In this document: one piece after another, positions 613 to 14,422 of the stretch
Numbering within the stretch: position 1 is the first letter of the stretch
Layout of the letters: every line of letters starts with the position of its first letter
DNA from: a virus
Lineage: Duplodnaviria > Heunggongvirae > Uroviricota > Caudoviricetes
DNA length: 14,422 nucleotides
Strand: one strand, 5' to 3'
Virus record (IMG/VR): IMGVR_UViG_2681813315_000020
Notes under the pieces: generated by a model
The model's database searches: none
Seen by the model: the letters and a program-made list of their open reading frames with translations, nothing else
Told to the model about the DNA's origin: nothing
Translations under genes and position numbers: made by a program

Positions 613-906
613 TTACCGCCGCAACCGCTCCGGCTTCTTCCAGTGGTAAGTAATTTTTTCTTTCTCCTGGTACATCTCCACGCGGCGACGATATGACAAC
701 AACTCCAGAACTCTGGTGCGTATATTGCGTATATCCACGCCGTTAAGCTCGATACCGTCACGGCGCATCACCTCAGCCACCACACGCGCGTAATTTTCGG
801 CTATCACGCTGTCCGGCTGCGTGGCCTCCTGTTTGCCTGCTTCCTGGCTGATTCCGGTAACGCGGCGGATTATTTTTAGTAGTTCGGTTTCGCTCATTCT
901 CGTCAT
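613..906 (-). CDS. Hypothetical 97-aa protein, translationally coupled to terL (ATGA stop/start overlap)
   Basis: ORF MTRMSETELLKIIRRV...; its ATG (906-904) overlaps the terL TGA (905-903). No family recognised by eye. Confidence 0.5.
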   Translation of the reverse strand: MTRMSETELLKIIRRVTGISQEAGKQEATQPDSVIAENYARVVAEVMRRDGIELNGVDIRNIRTRVLELLSYRRRVEMYQEKEKITYHWKKPERLRR

Positions 907-2564
907 ACCCCATCAAACGCCGCAAGCCGCTCTTTGTGGCTGTCGCTCATATCGAATGCAAAATCCTCGTGCTCTGCCTGGAATGTGCCAAACGCCATCA
1001 GCGCCGCAACGCTCGGGTCTATCTTGTTGGATGATTTTTTCTTGTTCGGCTTGATATTGGCGTTCGCGTCACTCTGCATCACAACATTACTCATTGACCA
1101 GGCCAGCACCGGATCGCCACGATGCACAATCACCTTCCGGTTAACAAAAACTTCGAACGATTTCGCCGCCGGACTGAAACGAAGGTATGTTTGCGGGAAC
1201 GGCTCCACCTCAAATCCTGCCCCCTGTAGCTGCGTCCTCAGGTGCGTGGCGTTCCATGTATCGAAGCCCACCAGCCTGATATTGAAATTCTCTGCATCCG
1301 CCATGATGTCATCACGGATACGGTCATAATCAATGCAGTCACCCGGTGTTGTGCGTATCCAGCCCGCCTTTACCCACTGGCGATAGATGGCGCGGTTTTT
1401 ATTGGCGGGGTTCTGTAGCTGAAATTCCGGCAGATAGTGACGGGAAACCAGCATAATCTTTTTACCGACCGGAAAGGCATAGCACACGCTGGAAATATCG
1501 CTGGTTGATGATAAGTCCAGCCCCGCGTAGCACTCCTGACCGTATAAATCCGCCTCCGCGAACGTTCCGGCGCACTCCGCCCATGCACCGTTACCCATCC
1601 ACGGCGTAGCCCCCTGACACCAGATATTGAATCGCTTGGTGAGCATTTCCACCTACTGCGACGGAATACCCCGCGCTTTCTGGATGGTTGAGGCCAGTTT
1701 TTCACGATCGACGGAAACATCGATATTGGGATTCGCCTTTATCCACATCGCCGGATCGTCAACCTCGCTTTCATCATCCAGCTCGTAAATCAGCACGAAC
1801 ATGGATTCGTTCACCTCTTCACCATCCAGTATCTGGCAGCAATAGTCATAGTGTTGTTTACAGGCTGAAACAACGTTGCTCCCCGATGTGGTGATGGCAA
1901 ATAACAGCCCCTCCGGACGCGCCCCCATTCCCAGTTCAAGCGCGGAATAAACCCCGTTGTCAGGGTGCAGGTGATATTCATCCACAATGGCAAGACTCGG
2001 GTTTGTACCTTCAATGGTTGCCGCTTTTGCTGCCAGTGGCTTTAACAGGCTGTTGGTTTTCGGGTGTATCACCTTGTGTGCCTGAATATTTACCCGCTTT
2101 CGTAACGGTCGGGATAAAAGGCACATCTGACGCGCATCATCAAACACGATCCGCGCCTGATCACGACTCACGGCGGCGGTGTAAATATCCTGCTGCCCGT
2201 TTTCCATAACCAGAAACCAGTTAGCCAGGATAGCGGCGACCGTGGATTTGGCATTTTTTCGCGGCACTTCAATGAATGCGCTGGTGTATTTGCGCCGTCC
2301 GGTGGCCTTAACCTTAAAGCCCAGGATGCACGCAAAGGCGAACTGCTGCCACGGCTCCAGCTCAATGGGGCTACCGCGCATTGCGCCTTTTACGTGCGGA
2401 CACACCCTGGAAAAGGCAATAAACCGCTCCACGACCTCCGGATCGAACGTGTAAAGGGGGTTTTCAAGGTCAGAAAAATACCGTTTAACGGCCTGTTTCA
2501 GTCGTTTACAGGCCGTAATTTTGCCGTTTTTTACGCCTTCTGCGTACTCATGCCAGGCGGTCAA
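903..2564 (-). pseudogene. terL: Terminase large subunit (HK97-like TerL) interrupted by an in-frame TAG at 1653-1655; N-terminal ATPase fragment 1656-2564, C-terminal nuclease fragment 903-1652
   Basis: ORFs 1653..2564 and 903..1652 are contiguous and in the same frame (...KARGIPSQ-TAG-VEMLTKRFNIW...). The N-terminal part carries a P-loop-like motif (VPRKNAKST) and TerL-like N-terminus; the C-terminal part resembles the terminase nuclease domain. Combined about 553 aa, typical TerL size. Apparent TTG start at 2564 preceded by AGAGGA; overlaps the terS 3' end. Confidence 0.75.
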
Positions 2565-2904
2565 GCTCGTCCTCTTCCTCTGTTTCCGGTGGATTTCTGC
2601 GGCGACTTACCGGGTCAAAACCCAGCAAAGAAGCCATTTTGATCATTATTCTTTCAGCGTCAGCCTTTGCGCTCAGGGCGGGGTTTCTGCTCTCGCTGCC
2701 CTGACTGTTAACAATGCTGAACCCGCGCGTGGCAAGGTCTTCGACGGCTTTGCGGTATATGGAGTAGTTAACGCAATACAGCTCCAGATTGCTCCAGTCG
2801 GCGGGGGTAAGGTCTTCCCGTCCGGAAAGCTGGCGCGATTTTTCCTTCCACTGCCTGACCGCGATTTCATCCAGGTAAGCGGGGGCTTTTGGTGGTCTTG
2901 CCAT
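2548..2904 (-). CDS. terS: Terminase small subunit, P27-like family
   Basis: Translation from the internal ATG at 2904 (MARPPKAPAYLDEIAVRQWKEKSRQL...GFDPVSRRRNPPETEEEDELD) matches the typical P27-family TerS N-terminus and acidic C-terminus. Lies immediately upstream of terL. Confidence 0.8.
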   Translation of the reverse strand: MARPPKAPAYLDEIAVRQWKEKSRQLSGREDLTPADWSNLELYCVNYSIYRKAVEDLATRGFSIVNSQGSESRNPALSAKADAERIMIKMASLLGFDPVSRRRNPPETEEEDELDRLA

Positions 2905-3192
2905 GTTCTTTTTTCGCCCAATTATTTTCAAAAAAATTCCCGTGCACAAAAATTTGAGGAGGCGGTCGGTGTCCGGCAGGGACGGTTTCGTCCTGAAAAC
3001 CACCCCCACCCCCTCTGACGGCCTCACCAGCGATTGCGAAAACATTCCATGACCTCGCGGTCACGGTCGGTTAATTGCTTCGCTGTGGTGCGTTCTGTGC
3101 GCCCTGTCCTGTTGGCTTTGTGCCCTGTCTCCTGTGTCTTCCATAAGTCACGCTGCCTTATCAGTCCACGTATCAGCCTGGTTTGCTCCTGT
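2905..3192. other. Candidate cos/packaging-site region between HNH and terS
   Basis: 288-bp gap in an otherwise tightly packed operon. Contains direct repeats GTGCGCCCTGTCCTGT (3098-3114) and GTGCCCTGTCTCCTGT (3120-3136), inverted repeat TGACCtcgcGGTCA (3049-3062), hairpin GGACGgtttCGTCC and C-tracts. In HK97-type phages cos lies between the HNH gene and terS. Confidence 0.35.
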
Positions 3193-3633
3193 TCAGTCAT
3201 CATCGCCATACATCCAGTCGTTACGGTGTGCTGCCCGTTCTTCCTGCTCGCGATACATGCCCGCCTTACGGTTCGCTTTCGTGGCTGGATCTTCCCGTGT
3301 CGTCTTACGGTTGTGGCACGTCTGGCACAATGCCTGGTGGTTCCACTCAGGCCAGAAGAGAACATCACCGCCGCCATTGATGGGGATGATGTGATCCACC
3401 ACAAGAGCTGGCGTATAAATCCCCTTAGCCAGACAACGCACGCATAACGGGTTTTTGCTCAGGTACAGGGCGCGGTATTTGTCCCACTGTCGGGAATACC
3501 CGCGCGCGCGGCGGTGTCCCCGTCTGGCATCCTCTGCACGCCATACAGCCCGTCTGTGCTCTTCACACTTGCCGGACTTCACGCGCTTATTACAGCCCGG
3601 CTCAGTGCATCGCCTTAATGGTTGCCACGGCAT
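3193..3633 (-). CDS. HNH endonuclease (phage packaging-associated)
   Basis: 146 aa with Cys pairs and the HNH core ...VVDHIIPINGGGDVLFWPEWNHQALCQTCHNRKT. Start overlaps the connector stop (TGATG). Sits directly upstream of terS as in HK97-type HNH-dependent cos packaging. Confidence 0.85.
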   Translation of the reverse strand: MPWQPLRRCTEPGCNKRVKSGKCEEHRRAVWRAEDARRGHRRARGYSRQWDKYRALYLSKNPLCVRCLAKGIYTPALVVDHIIPINGGGDVLFWPEWNHQALCQTCHNRKTTREDPATKANRKAGMYREQEERAAHRNDWMYGDDD

Positions 3634-3935
3634 CAGTACACCCCCACATCACGATAAACCGACCAGAGCGCAGAAATAGCCATAGGCAGTTCAGACTGCT
3701 CCACTGGTGAAACTGCTTCCCTGTTCTCGTACAGGAAAGCGATGTACATCAGGCAACCAACACGCATTGCCGGGGTAAATTCCAGCCCGTCTTCAAAACG
3801 TTTCCCGATATGCTTCTGGCAGGCTTCCAGCGCCGCATCGGTATACATTTTCAGAAGTTCGCCTTCACCGGATAAATCATCATCAAGTCGAAGATGTGCC
3901 CTGACTTCATCAGGTGTAATTCTGGCTTCACTCAT
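3633..3935 (-). CDS. Head-tail connector protein (gp6-like)
   Basis: Start at internal ATG 3935 with SD AAGGGAGA: MSEARITPDEVRAHLRLDDDLSGEGELLKMYTDAALEACQKHIGKRF..., typical N-terminal signature of gp6-like connector proteins. About 100 aa. Confidence 0.65.
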   Translation of the reverse strand: MSEARITPDEVRAHLRLDDDLSGEGELLKMYTDAALEACQKHIGKRFEDGLEFTPAMRVGCLMYIAFLYENREAVSPVEQSELPMAISALWSVYRDVGVY

Positions 3936-5142
3936 CTTTTCTCCCTTTAATTTCCACAGTCTGTTTCCATGCCTGGCTGAACTCATCACCACCTTCACGC
4001 GGCGGCATACCCTCGCGTTCGCGAGCTTCGTTCGGATTCATGATCCCGCTCTTAATCCCTTTCTCATACGTGGCATAACGTTCGGTGGGTGTGGCGCGCA
4101 GTAAATCGGCTGAATCAAACTCAACCAGATAACGGGTACCAGGTACGGGAGAAGTCACCAGCAAAGCGGCCTTGATTTGCTGTTCGAAGTTCGCCAGCCA
4201 CGGGCGCATTGTCATGGTCAGAAATGCGCGGCTCGCCTCACTGAAATTGCTGTAGGTGCTGTTGCTGTATTCCTGAAGAAAAATCGGCGACACGTTGAAC
4301 ATCCTGGCGATGTCTTCAATGGAGAAGCGACGGGAGGCCAGCCATTCCGCATCCTGGTTACTCATCCCCAGCCGCCTGTAATCCATGCCCCCTTCAAGGA
4401 TTGGCGTTTTTCCGGCATTTTTCGCCCCCTTGTAGCGTTCCAGTGCGTCTAATGCCTGTTTACCTTTCACGCCGTCCAGCCATTCACCTGACGTGATAAT
4501 CCCTGCCGCCATCATGCCATCTTTCATAATGCTGGCTCCGTGGCGCTGTTGAGCAAGGCCAAGCCCCAGCGCCTCACGGCAAATCGTGACGGGGGAACGC
4601 CCCAGAAAGCCATCATCCGAGGCATAGCGGAGATGCAGAACTTCTTCCTGTAAATACGTGCGCACCGTTCCTGTACAGGGTTCGGTGATGGTATAGCGGT
4701 ATTTGTGTGTGCCTGTGCGTTCCGGTACAACACACCCCGGCGCATAAGGATGAAGTGATTTTGGCTGCCCGTCCCGCCCCCACTCAATAACCGCATAGGC
4801 GTTACCGTTCAGCAGGCAGTGACGCATCATTGTGCGTTTAAACTGGTAAGGTGTCAGGCACGAATTAGGCTGCTCATTCAGCAGAATATCTACCGGGTGA
4901 CTGTCCAGCCATTCCCGCGCCTCTCTGCCCTTATCATTGCGTACCAGATACAGGTAACACGGCATCGTGGCCACCGCCTCAGCGATGACAGAAACCGCGT
5001 TCATCACAGCAGGCAATGATTCAGCCGTCCCGGCAGAAACATATTCTCCGGATCCGGTATTTGGTACACCAGACAACGCCAGAAAATCATCAATGGACAG
5101 GTTACGCAGATCGCTTTTTTTACGACTAAAAGGCCACCACAT
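3928..5142 (-). CDS. Portal protein, HK97 family
   Basis: About 404 aa from ATG 5142, 1 nt after the protease TGA. Portal-like segments: HPVDILLNEQPNSCLTPYQFKRTMMRHCLLNGNAYAV..., ...FSIEDIARMFNVSPIFLQ..., ...TMTMRPWLANFEQ... Confidence 0.85.
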   Translation of the reverse strand: MWWPFSRKKSDLRNLSIDDFLALSGVPNTGSGEYVSAGTAESLPAVMNAVSVIAEAVATMPCYLYLVRNDKGREAREWLDSHPVDILLNEQPNSCLTPYQFKRTMMRHCLLNGNAYAVIEWGRDGQPKSLHPYAPGCVVPERTGTHKYRYTITEPCTGTVRTYLQEEVLHLRYASDDGFLGRSPVTICREALGLGLAQQRHGASIMKDGMMAAGIITSGEWLDGVKGKQALDALERYKGAKNAGKTPILEGGMDYRRLGMSNQDAEWLASRRFSIEDIARMFNVSPIFLQEYSNSTYSNFSEASRAFLTMTMRPWLANFEQQIKAALLVTSPVPGTRYLVEFDSADLLRATPTERYATYEKGIKSGIMNPNEAREREGMPPREGGDEFSQAWKQTVEIKGRKDE

Positions 5143-5143
5143 A

Positions 5144-5704
5144 TCACAACCCCGCCAGTTCAGCCCAGCGATGACGATTATTTCCTGCCGGGCGTAATTC
5201 AGGGTACTGTGCAAACAACGAACGGTGGGCAATCTCCACGCCGGATTCGGGATAAGCAGGCATCGATGTTATCGTGATTTCACGGAGTTCTGCTGCGGTT
5301 ACAGTACGCAGATACGGTTTTTGCGCGATATTCCACTCCTCGCATAATGCGCGAAAGCCAAAGCTCATTCCTGTAATATCGCCACGTTCCACCAGCGTAA
5401 GCACATCTTTTCCAAGCTGGGTATTTGGCGGTGTCAGTTCAAAACGTAGCCCGGTGTTATCCTCAGTCAGTACCAGTGAGCCGGATTTGGTACGCCCCAG
5501 CAGTTGGGTATAGTCATGCTCATACAGACAGCGCACATCATTACCTGCCGCCAGATAGTCAGCAAAAGCCCCCGGCGTGAACTGTTCGCGAAACTCGTCC
5601 CAGATAATTTCTGAAAGGCTGTTCCAGCGAACGGCATAACCCACCAGTTTTTTATCGCTGGCGGTCAGTTCAGATGTACGGATTTCAAAATCGGTGTTTT
5701 TCAT
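5144..5704 (-). CDS. Prohead maturation protease, HK97 family (S78-like)
   Basis: Start at internal ATG 5704 (SD GGAG 7 nt upstream): MKNTDFEIRTSE...LVGYAVRWNSLSEII...GMSFGFRA...LREITITSMPAYPESG, matching the conserved blocks of HK97 prohead proteases. Confidence 0.8.
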   Translation of the reverse strand: MKNTDFEIRTSELTASDKKLVGYAVRWNSLSEIIWDEFREQFTPGAFADYLAAGNDVRCLYEHDYTQLLGRTKSGSLVLTEDNTGLRFELTPPNTQLGKDVLTLVERGDITGMSFGFRALCEEWNIAQKPYLRTVTAAELREITITSMPAYPESGVEIAHRSLFAQYPELRPAGNNRHRWAELAGL

Positions 5705-5753: not shown

Positions 5754-6899
5754 TTACTTGCCAGCCTGAATTTCCAGAATCTTGATGGCGTTCGAATCCA
5801 CCACACCACCGCCCAGATATTTCTGGGTATAGATGTTAATGAATCCAGGCTCGCTGAAATCCGGACGGGTACGCGTACCGGTTTTATGGTCAACGATGAA
5901 ATAACCGCGCTTAAAGTCACCGACTGCAATCACACCGTCTGGCATAAATTCCAGATATTCAACCGGAAGCCCCAGCAGAGAATCAGGATCACCAGCCTGT
6001 AAACGATCGCGCCAGATGTAATCACCAGTGGCATTTTTCAGTTTTTGTGCGGAGGCGGCTGTATTTGAGTTCATCACCCATACAGCTTTTTTGCGGTACT
6101 TATTGCGCAGCGTAAATTTCAGGTCAATCAGCATATCGGCGCTGAGACTGCCAGTCACTTTTTTCGTCTGGAGCGTACCGAAAGGACGGGTTTTGTCATT
6201 ATCCGTAGCGCGCGGGAAAGTCAGGAAACCTTTGGCTTTTTTCTCGCCATCACCGGAAACCAGATCCGTTTCTTCGGTATCAACGAAAGTGTCGCCAATT
6301 TCAGAAGATAACCAGCCCATAATATCGACTTCGGAAAAATCGATAATTTCCTGAGTGGTTTTCGGGTAAGCGTAGATCGGATACAGGCGGATACTGACTT
6401 CATTCAGTTTTGGGGTTGCCGTCTGGTTACGTGCCGCACCTTCTTCGCCGTGTCCCACGACCGCACCCCCGGCAGAAACCAGTTGCTTAAATTCATTACT
6501 GTGAATGGTTTTAACAGTACAGATTTTACGCATCACCGACTCATCAGAAAGCTGACGCATAATTTCTCTGTTCAGTTCCGGGATAACCGTATAACCACCA
6601 TCAGCCGGAACACTGCCGGACAGGTTGCGGGTTTCCCCGGTCAGAATGTAAGAGCGTAGCTCATTTTTGGTGATTTTATCTTCGACGGGAACACCAGGCT
6701 GGTTACGTTCTTCATCAGCCACAGACTCGAGGCGGGAAATTTCTGTGTCGAGGGAATCGGCTTTTGCACGCAGTTCATCAAACTGTTTGCCTTCGTCATC
6801 GGTTAGACTGCGGTTTTCACTGTCGGCTTTTTCCAGCAGGGATCGCATCTGGTTTTTCAGGGCGGTTTTTTGCTGGCGGAGTTCGATTAATTTCTTCAT
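5754..6899 (-). CDS. Major capsid protein, HK97 fold, with N-terminal coiled-coil (delta/scaffold-like) domain
   Basis: 381 aa. N-terminal about 100 aa predicted coiled coil (MKKLIELRQQKTALKNQMRSLLEKA...). Body has HK97-family capsid blocks (GHGEEGAARNQTATPKLNEVSIRL..., ...DLVSGDGEKKAKGFLTF...). Confidence 0.85.
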   Translation of the reverse strand: MKKLIELRQQKTALKNQMRSLLEKADSENRSLTDDEGKQFDELRAKADSLDTEISRLESVADEERNQPGVPVEDKITKNELRSYILTGETRNLSGSVPADGGYTVIPELNREIMRQLSDESVMRKICTVKTIHSNEFKQLVSAGGAVVGHGEEGAARNQTATPKLNEVSIRLYPIYAYPKTTQEIIDFSEVDIMGWLSSEIGDTFVDTEETDLVSGDGEKKAKGFLTFPRATDNDKTRPFGTLQTKKVTGSLSADMLIDLKFTLRNKYRKKAVWVMNSNTAASAQKLKNATGDYIWRDRLQAGDPDSLLGLPVEYLEFMPDGVIAVGDFKRGYFIVDHKTGTRTRPDFSEPGFINIYTQKYLGGGVVDSNAIKILEIQAGK

Positions 6900-8933: not shown

Positions 8934-10748
8934 TTAATTTTTGCTGTCGTCATTTGTGACCGATGCACATGATGGCATCCAGTCTTCTGAATCCTCTGTC
9001 AGTGTCACATTTGAACGCAAACCGTGCTTCGTTTTCCGTTTTATATACTCCCTGCCATATTCCGCCATTGCCCCCGGCATATCTTTACCGAAGCGCGTCA
9101 GTGTTACAGGTTTACCGAATCCGTGTGCCCTCATATATGCCAGATAGGCGTGATAAAGATACCTGCGCGGACTGAACGGAATAATTTCGGCATTACCCAC
9201 TAACAGACCATCACACATTACCGACGACATGAGATAGCCACAGAAGTCCACCAGCGAATCGCCCTCGCGTTTTATCACCAGAGCTTCTTCTGATTTCTGC
9301 TGCTCATACAGCAGGCGTTTAGCTTCGTCCTGGTCAGAAAAACGAGTAAGCAGATGGCGAATCACAACCGCCAGCTCTCCTTCTATTTTTTCTGCCAGCA
9401 TGGGGTCGCGCTCGTTCTCCGGTACAACCTCCGAAAAATTGAATATCACCCGACGACGTGAGATCCCCCCGCTGCGGTCACTGAATGACATGGCGTTATT
9501 GTTCACCGCCAGCACGACCGCCTGAATGCGTGTTGAGTAGGGGGCTTTATGCTTCGGGTCGATTGCCACCTTGTCACCGCCTGTAATAGCCTTAATTCCT
9601 GCGCCATCACCAGCGTAGCGGGTCATATCCGGCATGATAATCAGCGAAAAGCCAACCACTAACGCGCGTTCCCTTGCATCTTCCAGCGCCTTCATGCTTG
9701 CCGATACTGTGTTGGCCTTACCCGCCAGCATGGTGCAAATCTCCGCCATCACGCTTTTACCACTTCCCCCTGGACCTGTTACCTCAATGAATAACTGCCA
9801 GTCGTACCGGTTCGCCAGCACCATGAATAATGCAGCCAGCACGCGATCCGTCTTGCGGTCATTCTCTGCCACCGAGCAGCGTAACCACTTCCAGAAATTC
9901 GGCGCATGTGTTGCCAGCGTTTCCCCCTCTGCTGGTGGGCTGAAAGGTAATTCACTGGCAATTAACAACCAGTCGTTTTTGTTATGCTCCCGAAAATTAC
10001 CTGTTCTGGTATCAAATACCCCGTTACTGAATCCAATCAGGTTACGGGCTGTATTCCCCATTACAGGCAAACTTAACTTCATGGTATCGACCGCCGATTT
10101 AATGGCGTTCTGCGAATAGCTGATCTCCGCATCAATGAAAATCTGCGCCATAGCACGCTGTAACTCTTTATCCTGAATCGGCTCCCATACAACGCCGTTG
10201 TAATGGTGAACAGTGTCAGAGTCGGCATGAATCGCCAGTTCACCGCCATAATGTGCCAGGAGAACTTCGCCGCGCTGGCTTGCTCCCATCTGGTTAAGCG
10301 CCAGTGGTGCGGCGCTGTCTTCTGTTTTTTTCTTAACAGGAAGCTGAATCACCAGACCATCAGAAAGATTCTGGCGCTCACGGGCCAGATATTCGCGCCA
10401 GTTCTGCACCTCCTGGCCGTGCATACCCTCAGGATAAAAATTTGCATCCTGTACGCCTGCCGCCGCCAGCTTCTGACCAATCGCCTTTATCATTACTGGC
10501 GCAAGATATCCGGCCCTGAATATGCGCACGGATTTTCTGCCTTCCGGCACAATTTGCAGCTTATCCAGTTCGGATAACTGCTGCTCCCCAAGCCACACAG
10601 GAGGCTCATTATCTCCGGCCATACGCGCGTCATGTTCCTGCCATTGTTTTGCGTGTGACCAGGCATCACTACCCGCAAAAATAATGACTTCTGTTTCTTT
10701 GTGTTTTATGCCGCGTGACTGCTGTTTTACGTTCGGTGCCAGTTTCAT
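8934..10748 (-). CDS. Replication initiator: primase/helicase-type protein with D5_N-like region and P-loop NTPase domain
   Basis: 604 aa; Walker A FIEVTGPGGSGKSVMAE; upstream region resembles the D5 N-terminal-like domain found with phage/plasmid primase C-terminal NTPases. Stop codon abuts the iteron array. Confidence 0.8.
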   Translation of the reverse strand: MKLAPNVKQQSRGIKHKETEVIIFAGSDAWSHAKQWQEHDARMAGDNEPPVWLGEQQLSELDKLQIVPEGRKSVRIFRAGYLAPVMIKAIGQKLAAAGVQDANFYPEGMHGQEVQNWREYLARERQNLSDGLVIQLPVKKKTEDSAAPLALNQMGASQRGEVLLAHYGGELAIHADSDTVHHYNGVVWEPIQDKELQRAMAQIFIDAEISYSQNAIKSAVDTMKLSLPVMGNTARNLIGFSNGVFDTRTGNFREHNKNDWLLIASELPFSPPAEGETLATHAPNFWKWLRCSVAENDRKTDRVLAALFMVLANRYDWQLFIEVTGPGGSGKSVMAEICTMLAGKANTVSASMKALEDARERALVVGFSLIIMPDMTRYAGDGAGIKAITGGDKVAIDPKHKAPYSTRIQAVVLAVNNNAMSFSDRSGGISRRRVIFNFSEVVPENERDPMLAEKIEGELAVVIRHLLTRFSDQDEAKRLLYEQQKSEEALVIKREGDSLVDFCGYLMSSVMCDGLLVGNAEIIPFSPRRYLYHAYLAYMRAHGFGKPVTLTRFGKDMPGAMAEYGREYIKRKTKHGLRSNVTLTEDSEDWMPSCASVTNDDSKN

Positions 10749-13192: not shown

Positions 13193-14422
13193 TTATATTT
13201 CTCTGGCTATTGGCAGTGTGGTTACGTTTTCGTGAGTACCCGCCAGTATCTCTAACCGCTCTGTCCACATGTCCAGCGCATTACGTTTCGCATCGAGATA
13301 ACGGGAGTGGTTATAGACTCGCTGCATCCCTGGCATCTGGTGAGCGGTGAGTTGTTCGACAATATGCGGATCCACGCCTAAATCGTTCAGCATCGTGGTA
13401 AACGTGCGCCGTATATCGTGTAGTGACCAGTGCGGATGGTTTAATTTTTTGTGCGTGAATCTGCCGTATTGCGACACGCTGGCTTCCTGTTTCAGTTCCC
13501 CGAGTAATAGTCCTGTGTGTCGGTTCTGCTCCACCAGCCGTGTGACGAACGGTAAAATGCTTTCCGGTATTGGCCTGAATATGGCGACCTTCGTTTTGCT
13601 GTGCTCCTTCGGTACTGTCCAGAGCATTTCCTTAAAATCCCACTCCCTGATCTCCGACAGCCTCAGTTCTCCGGTTCGGCAACCAAACACAATCAGGAGG
13701 CGGATTAGTGCGCTGTAGTAGGGCGGGAATATTTTTTTATCCAGCGCCTGTAATAATTCGCCCAGTTCTTTGTTACTAAGCACGCGTTCGCTTATGCCCG
13801 GCTTTTTGCCAACGTCCACCACGTTGAGATCATCCAGAACGTTACTGACTGCGTAGCGACGTTTACGGCAGAACTTAAGCGCCTGTTTACACGCCTGCAT
13901 CATGTGACCAGACGTTACGGGGGATTTTTTGCGTATCCGGTCAAAACAGGCCAGCCAGTGACGTAATTCGCATTTATCCAGTGGCATGTTACCGATGTGC
14001 TGTATGACGTGATTATTCAGGCGACTTTTCAGGCATACATAATCGACACGGTTTTCCTTTACGTGCGTTTCCAGCCAGTAACTGATCGCATCGCCAACCG
14101 TTACGGGTTTTAACGCTTCCTGCACAGTGTAGTTCAGTTCATGACGTGGGTTTTTCCCTTCTGCCAGCCATGCACGACACTTTGCGGCTTTTTCCCTGGC
14201 TGCTTTAAGGCTCAGATCGGGATAGTTTCCCAGCTTCAGGCGTTCCGGTGTGGTATCCCTTCCCGTTCCAGCCCTGTAGGTGAAGTACCAGGTCAATTTA
14301 CCTGATGTTAAATATTTCACGCTCAGATTACCGCCATCGCTATAGAACGTATTTTTCTCCGCTGGCTTACCATAAAGTTTTCTTAACAATGTATCGCTCA
14401 GTTTGTTAAGCGCTCTGCTCAC
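13193..14422 (-). CDS. int: Tyrosine integrase, P4/CP4-57 type, with N-terminal arm-binding (DUF4102-like) domain; 5' end at or just beyond the window edge
   Basis: 409 aa reaching the window edge, where the first codon is GTG. N-terminus LSDTLLRKLYGKPAEKNTFYSDGGNLSVKYLTSGKLTWYFTYR resembles the P4-type integrase N-terminal domain; C-terminal catalytic region has HDIRRT and VYNHSRY (tyrosine recombinase His-x-x-Arg and Tyr motifs). Confidence 0.9.
   Translation of the reverse strand: MSRALNKLSDTLLRKLYGKPAEKNTFYSDGGNLSVKYLTSGKLTWYFTYRAGTGRDTTPERLKLGNYPDLSLKAAREKAAKCRAWLAEGKNPRHELNYTVQEALKPVTVGDAISYWLETHVKENRVDYVCLKSRLNNHVIQHIGNMPLDKCELRHWLACFDRIRKKSPVTSGHMMQACKQALKFCRKRRYAVSNVLDDLNVVDVGKKPGISERVLSNKELGELLQALDKKIFPPYYSALIRLLIVFGCRTGELRLSEIREWDFKEMLWTVPKEHSKTKVAIFRPIPESILPFVTRLVEQNRHTGLLLGELKQEASVSQYGRFTHKKLNHPHWSLHDIRRTFTTMLNDLGVDPHIVEQLTAHQMPGMQRVYNHSRYLDAKRNALDMWTERLEILAGTHENVTTLPIAREI

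Follow-up and report, generated by a model that had tools for sequence, protein, structure and literature searches.

The stretch of DNA analysed here (the window, 14,422 nucleotides) is an Escherichia coli capsid-forming PICI (cf-PICI) of the EcCIEDL933 family. Open reading frames and Pfam domains reveal the PICI backbone (int, alpA-type regulation and pri-rep) together with the element's own capsid, protease, portal, connector(s), HNH, terS and terL genes, without tail or lysis genes. All of the genes that are relevant here lie on the minus strand, and their order is that of the cf-PICIs, the prototype of which is EcCIEDL933. They include the integrase (13193-14422), the primase/replicase (8934-10748), the major capsid protein (5754-6899), the portal (3928-5232), a head-tail connector (3633-3998) and a prohead protease, each recognized from its ORF and Pfam domain.

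The packaging genes proper are an HNH endonuclease of 146 aa (3193-3633, minus strand; Pfam HNH PF01844, E=8.8e-10), a P27-family small terminase, terS, of 118 aa (2548-2904, minus strand; Pfam Terminase_4 PF05119, E=1.6e-23), and an amber-interrupted terL (903-2564, minus strand), with Pfam TerL_ATPase and TerL_nuclease domains split over two ORFs. The HNH gene is also annotated by PGAP in the identical sequence of E. coli NCCP 13717 (L001). This genome is 100% identical to the window across the HNH-terS segment, and the O157:H7 element shows 85-86% DNA identity over the same segment. A 97-aa ORF follows terL (613-906, minus strand; phrog_1561) and is conserved in EDL933 (RS08745). One further cf-PICI, LR881103.1 (L086; 'Escherichia phage vB_KppS-Ant', 16,548 bp), carries directly after terL a 2.3-kb gene (2036-4333) that is annotated as a tape measure protein. 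This annotation is unusual, as cf-PICIs are said to have no tail genes.

The interval between the HNH stop at 3193 and the terS ATG at 2904 (2905-3192) had been taken, in a preliminary description of this locus, for a 288-bp non-coding gap. That view has to be given up. A conserved ORF occupies 3024-3209 on the minus strand, ending with a TGA at 3026-3024, and only the 119 bp from 2905 to 3023 are non-coding. The ORF overlaps the HNH stop in a ATGACTGA arrangement and encodes 61 aa from the ATG at 3209, or 58 aa from a conserved M-T-E start at 3200. It matches phrog_3173 with E=8.7e-28 over profile positions 1-57 of 57. The identical E. coli genome, the O157:H7 strain ECP19-198 and EDL933 all have it in their PGAP annotation, as the hypothetical proteins WP_072126739.1 / WP_000174068.1.

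The evolution of this ORF is that of a coding sequence. Its median pairwise dN/dS is 0.49, with values below 1 in 98% of 130 pairs, and the entropy of its alignment columns, 0.70 and 0.62 at codon positions 1 and 2, rises to 0.95 at position 3. Close homologues differ in length only by in-frame indels within the linker. IMG/VR relatives host four strongly diverged types of the protein, which nevertheless have in common a helix at the N-terminus and, at the C-terminus, the motif RDRE[VL][MR]ECFRNR. AlphaFold2 models helices at residues 6-33 and 48-58, with a disordered segment at 33-42. The linker is basic. This is a real gene.

It is also an accessory, non-universal one, as a few copies contain premature stops or frameshifts and some lineages have no copy at all. 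The gene is present in Enterobacteriaceae cf-PICIs, and is absent from Pasteurella, Xenorhabdus, Photorhabdus and Haemophilus elements in which the cos core described below is retained, as well as from the phages phi644-2 and ST64B. A Pfam search with the small protein gave no match, and a word-indexed search found only close 'hypothetical' homologues. We can offer a tentative idea, and one that we think will probably turn out to be wrong: the protein may be an unrecognised accessory subunit of the HNH-dependent terminase, which tunes cos recognition or cleavage and thereby aids satellite-exclusive packaging. Mutations in hnh, terS or terL of EcCIEDL933 abolish its transfer. According to Alqurainy et al., this holds for all packaging-module mutants of the element, except for 'hypothetical gene 1792', where there is a severe reduction only. 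Gene 1792 may be the small ORF (3024-3209) or the ORF after terL (613-906); neither the text of Alqurainy et al. nor the RefSeq locus tags decide between the two.

The true intergenic region (2905-3023, read on the minus strand) is where, as judged from conservation and alignment, we place cos. In an alignment of 112 distinct relatives, invariant columns make up 38% of the region, as against 5% of the third codon positions of HNH and 15% of those of terS. The conservation is concentrated in three near-invariant blocks, all on the minus strand. Block 1 (B1, 2990-3012) is a G-tract, GGGGTGGGGGTGGTTTTCAGGAC, with the pattern GGGGTGGGGGnGGTTTTCAGGAC. It is unique in the window and lies 22-44 nt upstream of the first predicted nick, that of the plus strand at 2969/2968. 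An equivalent G-run occurs at the same distance in D3, phi644-2, ST64B, HK97 and the Pasteurella element Pmp8, and across genera. This would suit a cosQ-like element, or one that positions the terminase and HNH proteins. The 18-nt spacer that follows (2972-2989) varies in sequence and not in length: nearly all of its 41 variants are equally long. A search for covariation that would support a hairpin in the spacer returned only weak and inconsistent stems (-1 to -7 kcal/mol).

Block 2 (B2, 2940-2971) reads CACCGACCGCCTCCTCAAATTTTTGTGCACGG and is likewise unique in the window, with the consensus CACCnnCCGCCyCCTCAAATTTTTnnGCACrG. Its flanks are near-invariant, and it comprises the predicted cohesive end between them: ..AC, the overhang, then CTCAAATTTTT. 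Block 3 (B3, 2922-2937), ATTTTTTTGAAAATAA, is invariant in the alignment of relatives. The core motif that spans the last two blocks, CTCAAATTTTT..GC.C.G...TTTTTTTGAAAATAA, is found exactly in 20 species-representative genomes (L325-L344) from at least 13 genera of Enterobacterales and Pasteurellaceae. These include Pantoea, Xenorhabdus, Photorhabdus, Kluyvera, Enterobacter, Klebsiella, Kosakonia, Rahnella, Citrobacter, Haemophilus and Avibacterium. The motif is still recognisable in Pmp8, which has no small ORF. The 10-mer of the cohesive end itself varies at about four positions, with the E. coli-group consensus C[GA][AC]C[CT]GCC[CT]C, and is more variable in Xenorhabdus, Photorhabdus and Pasteurellaceae. 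It can also be seen that the G-tract (2990-3015) is complementary to the C-rich cohesive-end region (2956-2968), and RNAfold pairs the two; phi644-2 and D3 have a similar G-tract and C-rich end.

These blocks (2922-3012) lie between HNH and terS-terL, the position of an HK97/phiE125-type cos, and they are homologous to experimentally mapped nick sites, those of phi644-2 and HK97. In a MAFFT alignment the window and the phages phi644-2, HK97, D3 and ST64B are ungapped across the junction, and the phi644-2 and HK97 junctions fall at one column. Transferring the cuts from the phi644-2/HK97 alignment predicts nicks at 2959/2958 on the minus strand and at 2969/2968 on the plus strand. The predicted cosN is thus at 2968-2959 (minus strand), with a 10-nt 3' cohesive end, 5'-CGACCGCCTC-3', as transferred from relatives of about 75-78% DNA identity and from phages with only some 34% identity in TerS. 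The small gene ends 55 bp before the first of these nicks.

The better comparators are phi644-2 and ST64B, as both have a P27-family TerS. The 10-nt 3' ends of phi644-2, 5'-CGCCCGCTTC-3', are equal to the cos of phiE125 (PMC2920897), and the junction of its record reads ...GGGCGGGGAGGGGGG-N-GGGAC/CGCCCGCTTC/GTCAAATTTTCACGCCCGCGAAAAATGAAATTTAA (slashes mark the cuts), where the part after the cut is also read as GTCAAATTTT. As in the window, cos lies between HNH and terS in phi644-2 and phiE125, the HNH gene of phi644-2 being at the right genome end, and the phi644-2 TerS (PF05119) is 34% identical to that of the window. Both phages further share a G-tract about 40 nt upstream, an ungapped ..GGAC, C-rich 10-mer and G or C followed by TCAAATTTT, an A/T-rich element after this motif (GAAAAATGAAATTTAA there, ATTTTTTTGAAAATAA in the window), and a terS start about 50-55 nt past the cut. 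The differences are the overhang (CGCCCGCTTC versus CGACCGCCTC in the window), the fact that these are complete phages and not a satellite, and the small gene: phi644-2 has none, whereas the window has phrog_3173 between HNH and cos. The junction of ST64B from Salmonella, CCCGCCCCCTCGAATTTTTA, is identical to that of type B/C cf-PICIs at 20 of 21 positions, and the GAAAAATGAAATTTAA element is present as well. In Pseudomonas phage D3, GGGGTGGGG...GGACAC and 10 nt lead up to the genome end; here the record junction alone was used. Unlike the satellite, D3 and ST64B are full-size temperate phages, and the ST64B record is circular, with ends that are undefined in the record.

The similarity to HK97 is more distant. 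The two share the gene order HNH - cos - terS - terL, GAC/CGCC at the upstream nick, a 10-nt 3' overhang and a G-run upstream. In HK97, the HNH protein gp74 stimulates cleavage at cos. The HK97 record ends ...ATGACCGCCGCCAAA and starts GTTTGAATTT...CCCGATTTTTTT..., 49 nt before terS. A global alignment of this junction with the window scores 57, compared with 38.6 +/- 5.8 for shuffled sequences, 7 of 2000 of which reach the score; overall the similarity is modest, and both the overhang and its flanks differ. Since the HK97 TerS is unrelated in sequence, lacking a Terminase_4 domain and any detectable similarity to the TerS of the cf-PICI, we have downgraded HK97 as a sole comparator. Taken together, and judging from sequence, the predicted cos of the window is of the HK97/phiE125/D3 class and would be served by TerL, the HNH nuclease and TerS.

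The ends of related elements can be compared with this prediction. Two independent cf-PICI assemblies, LR881103 and the contig 3300022664_000095, break at the site. The latter (IMGVR_UViG_3300022664_000095; L256 + L154) is a complete metagenomic cf-PICI of 15,518 nt, with the order terS, terL, int, rep, capsid, HNH and small ORF, and its ends are at the predicted nicks. It starts CTCAAATTTTTACGCAC..., beginning with CTCAAATTTTT, and its first base corresponds in BLAST to window position 2958; it ends ...CAGGACAAAACCCAAGCCGCAAGGCAC (...AAGGCAC), its last base corresponding to 2969. In 41 contiguous variants the two end strings are always 10 nt apart, and the contig is without exactly the 10 nt between the predicted nicks. 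The nick prediction from the phi644-2 alignment preceded the identification of this start, in what is a single contig with a sample type and library method that are undocumented here. The 10 nt are lost and not duplicated, which fits a blunt-ended 3' overhang, while a 5' overhang would have been filled in and be present twice. It is from this loss alone that we infer the 3' polarity of the cohesive end.

The second assembly, LR881103, is an induced prophage. The record begins 22 nt upstream of terS and has ...GGTTTTCAGGAC as its end, and 68 bp that span B2 and B3 are missing, a break that could in principle result from re-orientation by the submitter. The contig ends of eight other loci (L063, L075, L102, L125, L161, L173, L203 and L239) were treated as uninformative, being either chunk boundaries of the stored sequence or random ends of contigs in which the cos region is complete.

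A candidate TerS-binding, cosB-like site can be proposed by positional analogy with HK97. The minimal site of the HK97 TerS (gp1) is located at +15 to +29 and consists of a G and a T-tract, CTAACCCGATTTTTT, next to a cos with 10-nt 3' overhangs (PMC11331095). In the window the same positions read CACGGGAATTTTTTT, again a G and then a T-tract (G + T7 in HK97) in equal register. We therefore suggest that TerS may bind at 2922-2944 (minus strand; CACGGGAATTTTTTTGAAAATAA), which corresponds to +15 to +37 from the minus-strand nick and includes B3, with the proviso that the HK97 TerS used for this analogy belongs to a different sequence family than the TerS of the window.

Could the conserved blocks serve the expression of terS and terL, as a terminator or attenuator hairpin, a promoter or the context of a ribosome-binding site, instead of, or besides, acting as cos? 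They are found just upstream of the terS start, and RNAfold pairs GAGGGGGUGG with CCGCCUCCUC, with a U-run after the pairing. However, the fold of the blocks is no more stable than that of shuffled sequences (z = -0.97), an Rfam search of the blocks gave no match, and a promoter and terminator scan returned no minus-strand promoter and only weak terminator-like matches that are off-centre from the blocks. The G-tract never varies, so it can show no compensatory covariation. Alignment also matches these blocks to cohesive ends that were mapped by experiment in phages, and a packaged genome ends there. We consider a role in terS-terL control improbable.

The preliminary description had proposed cos in the HNH-terS interval, where HK97-type phages carry it, and had assigned its parts to two direct repeats, as cosB-like TerS sites, and to a palindrome, as the nick site. 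The strings are all where they were described: GTGCGCCCTGTCCTGT at 3097-3112 and GTGCCCTGTCTCCTGT at 3120-3135, with a start-to-start spacing of 23, TGACC-tcgc-GGTCA at 3050-3063, and C-tracts at about 2997-3015. The proposed location between HNH and terS holds, as does the idea that the site is specific to the element. The anatomy does not, because the site is in the 119 bp adjoining terS. Only the C-tracts belong to cos: on the coding strand they correspond to the G-tract block and the C-rich cohesive end.

Both the direct repeats and the palindrome consist instead of codons of the conserved small gene. The repeats encode its disordered linker (..QETGH..NRTGR..), a region with in-frame indels, and the palindrome, GACCGCGAGGTC, encodes D-R-E-V. 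Neither exceeds what is expected by chance: the best direct repeat in the 288 bp, a 17-mer with 13/17 matches, is reached in 57/500 dinucleotide shuffles, and the four inverted repeats with 5-bp arms (shuffle mean 1.6) are reached in 65/500. The direct repeats occur only in the ORF type of the window (type A); of the repeats, the EDL933-type ORF keeps only a part. ORF types B, C and D lack both repeats and palindrome, the latter being non-palindromic there, yet keep the cos blocks, and the same is true of Pasteurella and Xenorhabdus elements that retain the TerS family and the blocks. Furthermore, the predicted nicks (2958/2959 and 2968/2969) and the mapped ends of the related packaged genome are some 90-170 bp away from these features. 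It is thus very improbable that they act as TerS-binding and nick sites. Headful (pac) packaging, with no fixed ends and with the blocks as a pac recognition site only, is the least credible alternative, for although TerS-dependent recognition sites occur in pac systems too, nothing points specifically to headful packaging, cohesive cos ends, through which concatemers form, have been reported for cf-PICI DNA, HNH-associated TerL systems are cos-type, and the exact ends of contig 3300022664_000095, with their 10-nt gap, match the mapped nick positions.

The reading that we favour, and regard as very probable, is that the interval consists of the small gene (3024-3209) and an HK97/phiE125/D3-class cos within 2905-3023. 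The small gene is translationally coupled to HNH, and its codons give rise to the direct repeats and the palindrome. The cos would work as follows. When cf-PICI DNA is present as concatemers, its P27-family TerS would bind the site with a G and a T-tract, some 15-37 nt past the cut in the downstream direction, and the bound TerS would position or stall TerL and HNH. TerL/HNH would then nick the minus strand at 2959/2958 and the plus strand at 2969/2968, leaving 10-nt 3' overhangs, CGACCGCCTC. The flanks, ..GGACAC on one side of the overhang and CTCAAATTTTT on the other, and the G-tract 22-44 nt upstream, may contribute to recognition or termination. Packaging would run from terS rightwards to the next cos. 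In this scheme the binding of TerS, the attribution of each nick to TerL or HNH and the function of the G-tract are inferred, whereas the analysis shows that 3024-3209 is coding, that the blocks are conserved and homologous to mapped cos sites, and where a related packaged element physically ends.

This particular copy is probably packaging-defective. Its terL contains an in-frame amber codon, TAG at 1655-1653 (minus strand; W304*, TGG to TAG), that is private to the window: none of the other loci compared has it, the wild-type 31-mer occurs in 82, and the near-identical copy of E. coli NCCP 13717 (L001) has TGG at terL codon 304. The defect would not apply if the codon is suppressed, if terL is complemented or if the change is a sequencing error. 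In the lineage of the window and L001, moreover, the portal leads directly to the connector (3633-5232), without the head-closure gene that is present in EDL933-type elements, in L002 (4527-4865), in L003 (4512-4850) and in contig 3300022664_000095. Given the terL amber codon and the missing head-closure gene, the autonomy of this copy appears doubtful. Its cos may be intact but unused unless complemented.

The cf-PICIs are recently described and widespread satellites that assemble capsids of their own, into which they package their own DNA exclusively. The literature that we searched contains statements of cos packaging for these elements, and we found no mapped site in it. What is added here is a placing of the cf-PICI cos to the nucleotide, as predicted from homology and from the ends of a related packaged genome. 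Conceptually there is nothing new in this, as an HK97/phiE125-class cos was to be expected, and in this place. The result does have some practical uses. It defines a cassette of about 95 bp (2922-3015) that is testable for the packaging of plasmids into cf-PICI capsids. The motif GGGGTGGGGG-N(37)-[10 nt]-CTCAAATTTTT-N(10)-TTTTTTTGAAAATAA can be used to find such elements, and to orient virion genomes, in metagenomes.

A nucleotide-level cos also explains, in terms of sequence, why the packaging of helper and satellite do not cross. The cos blocks are kept in related satellites, and the helper phages HK106 and HK446 carry a different cos, that of HK97 (the region is 98% identical in HK106 and 96% in HK446), together with an HK97-type TerS. 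The earlier suggestion of an element-specific cos is borne out by this comparison. As the overhang, the flanks and the TerS family of the satellite all differ from those of the helper's HK97-type system, packaging of the satellite and of the helper would be mutually exclusive, and this has been reported for cf-PICIs.

Other cos strategies of satellites have been described before. P4 and the cos-SaPIs copy the cos of their helper; in the classical E. coli PICIs, the helper TerS is redirected by Rpp. In these systems, as in the cf-PICIs, a short cis-acting cos decides which DNA enters the capsid. The difference is that the cos of the cf-PICI is not that of the helper and, as has been proposed for this group, would be read by the satellite's own TerS, TerL and HNH proteins.
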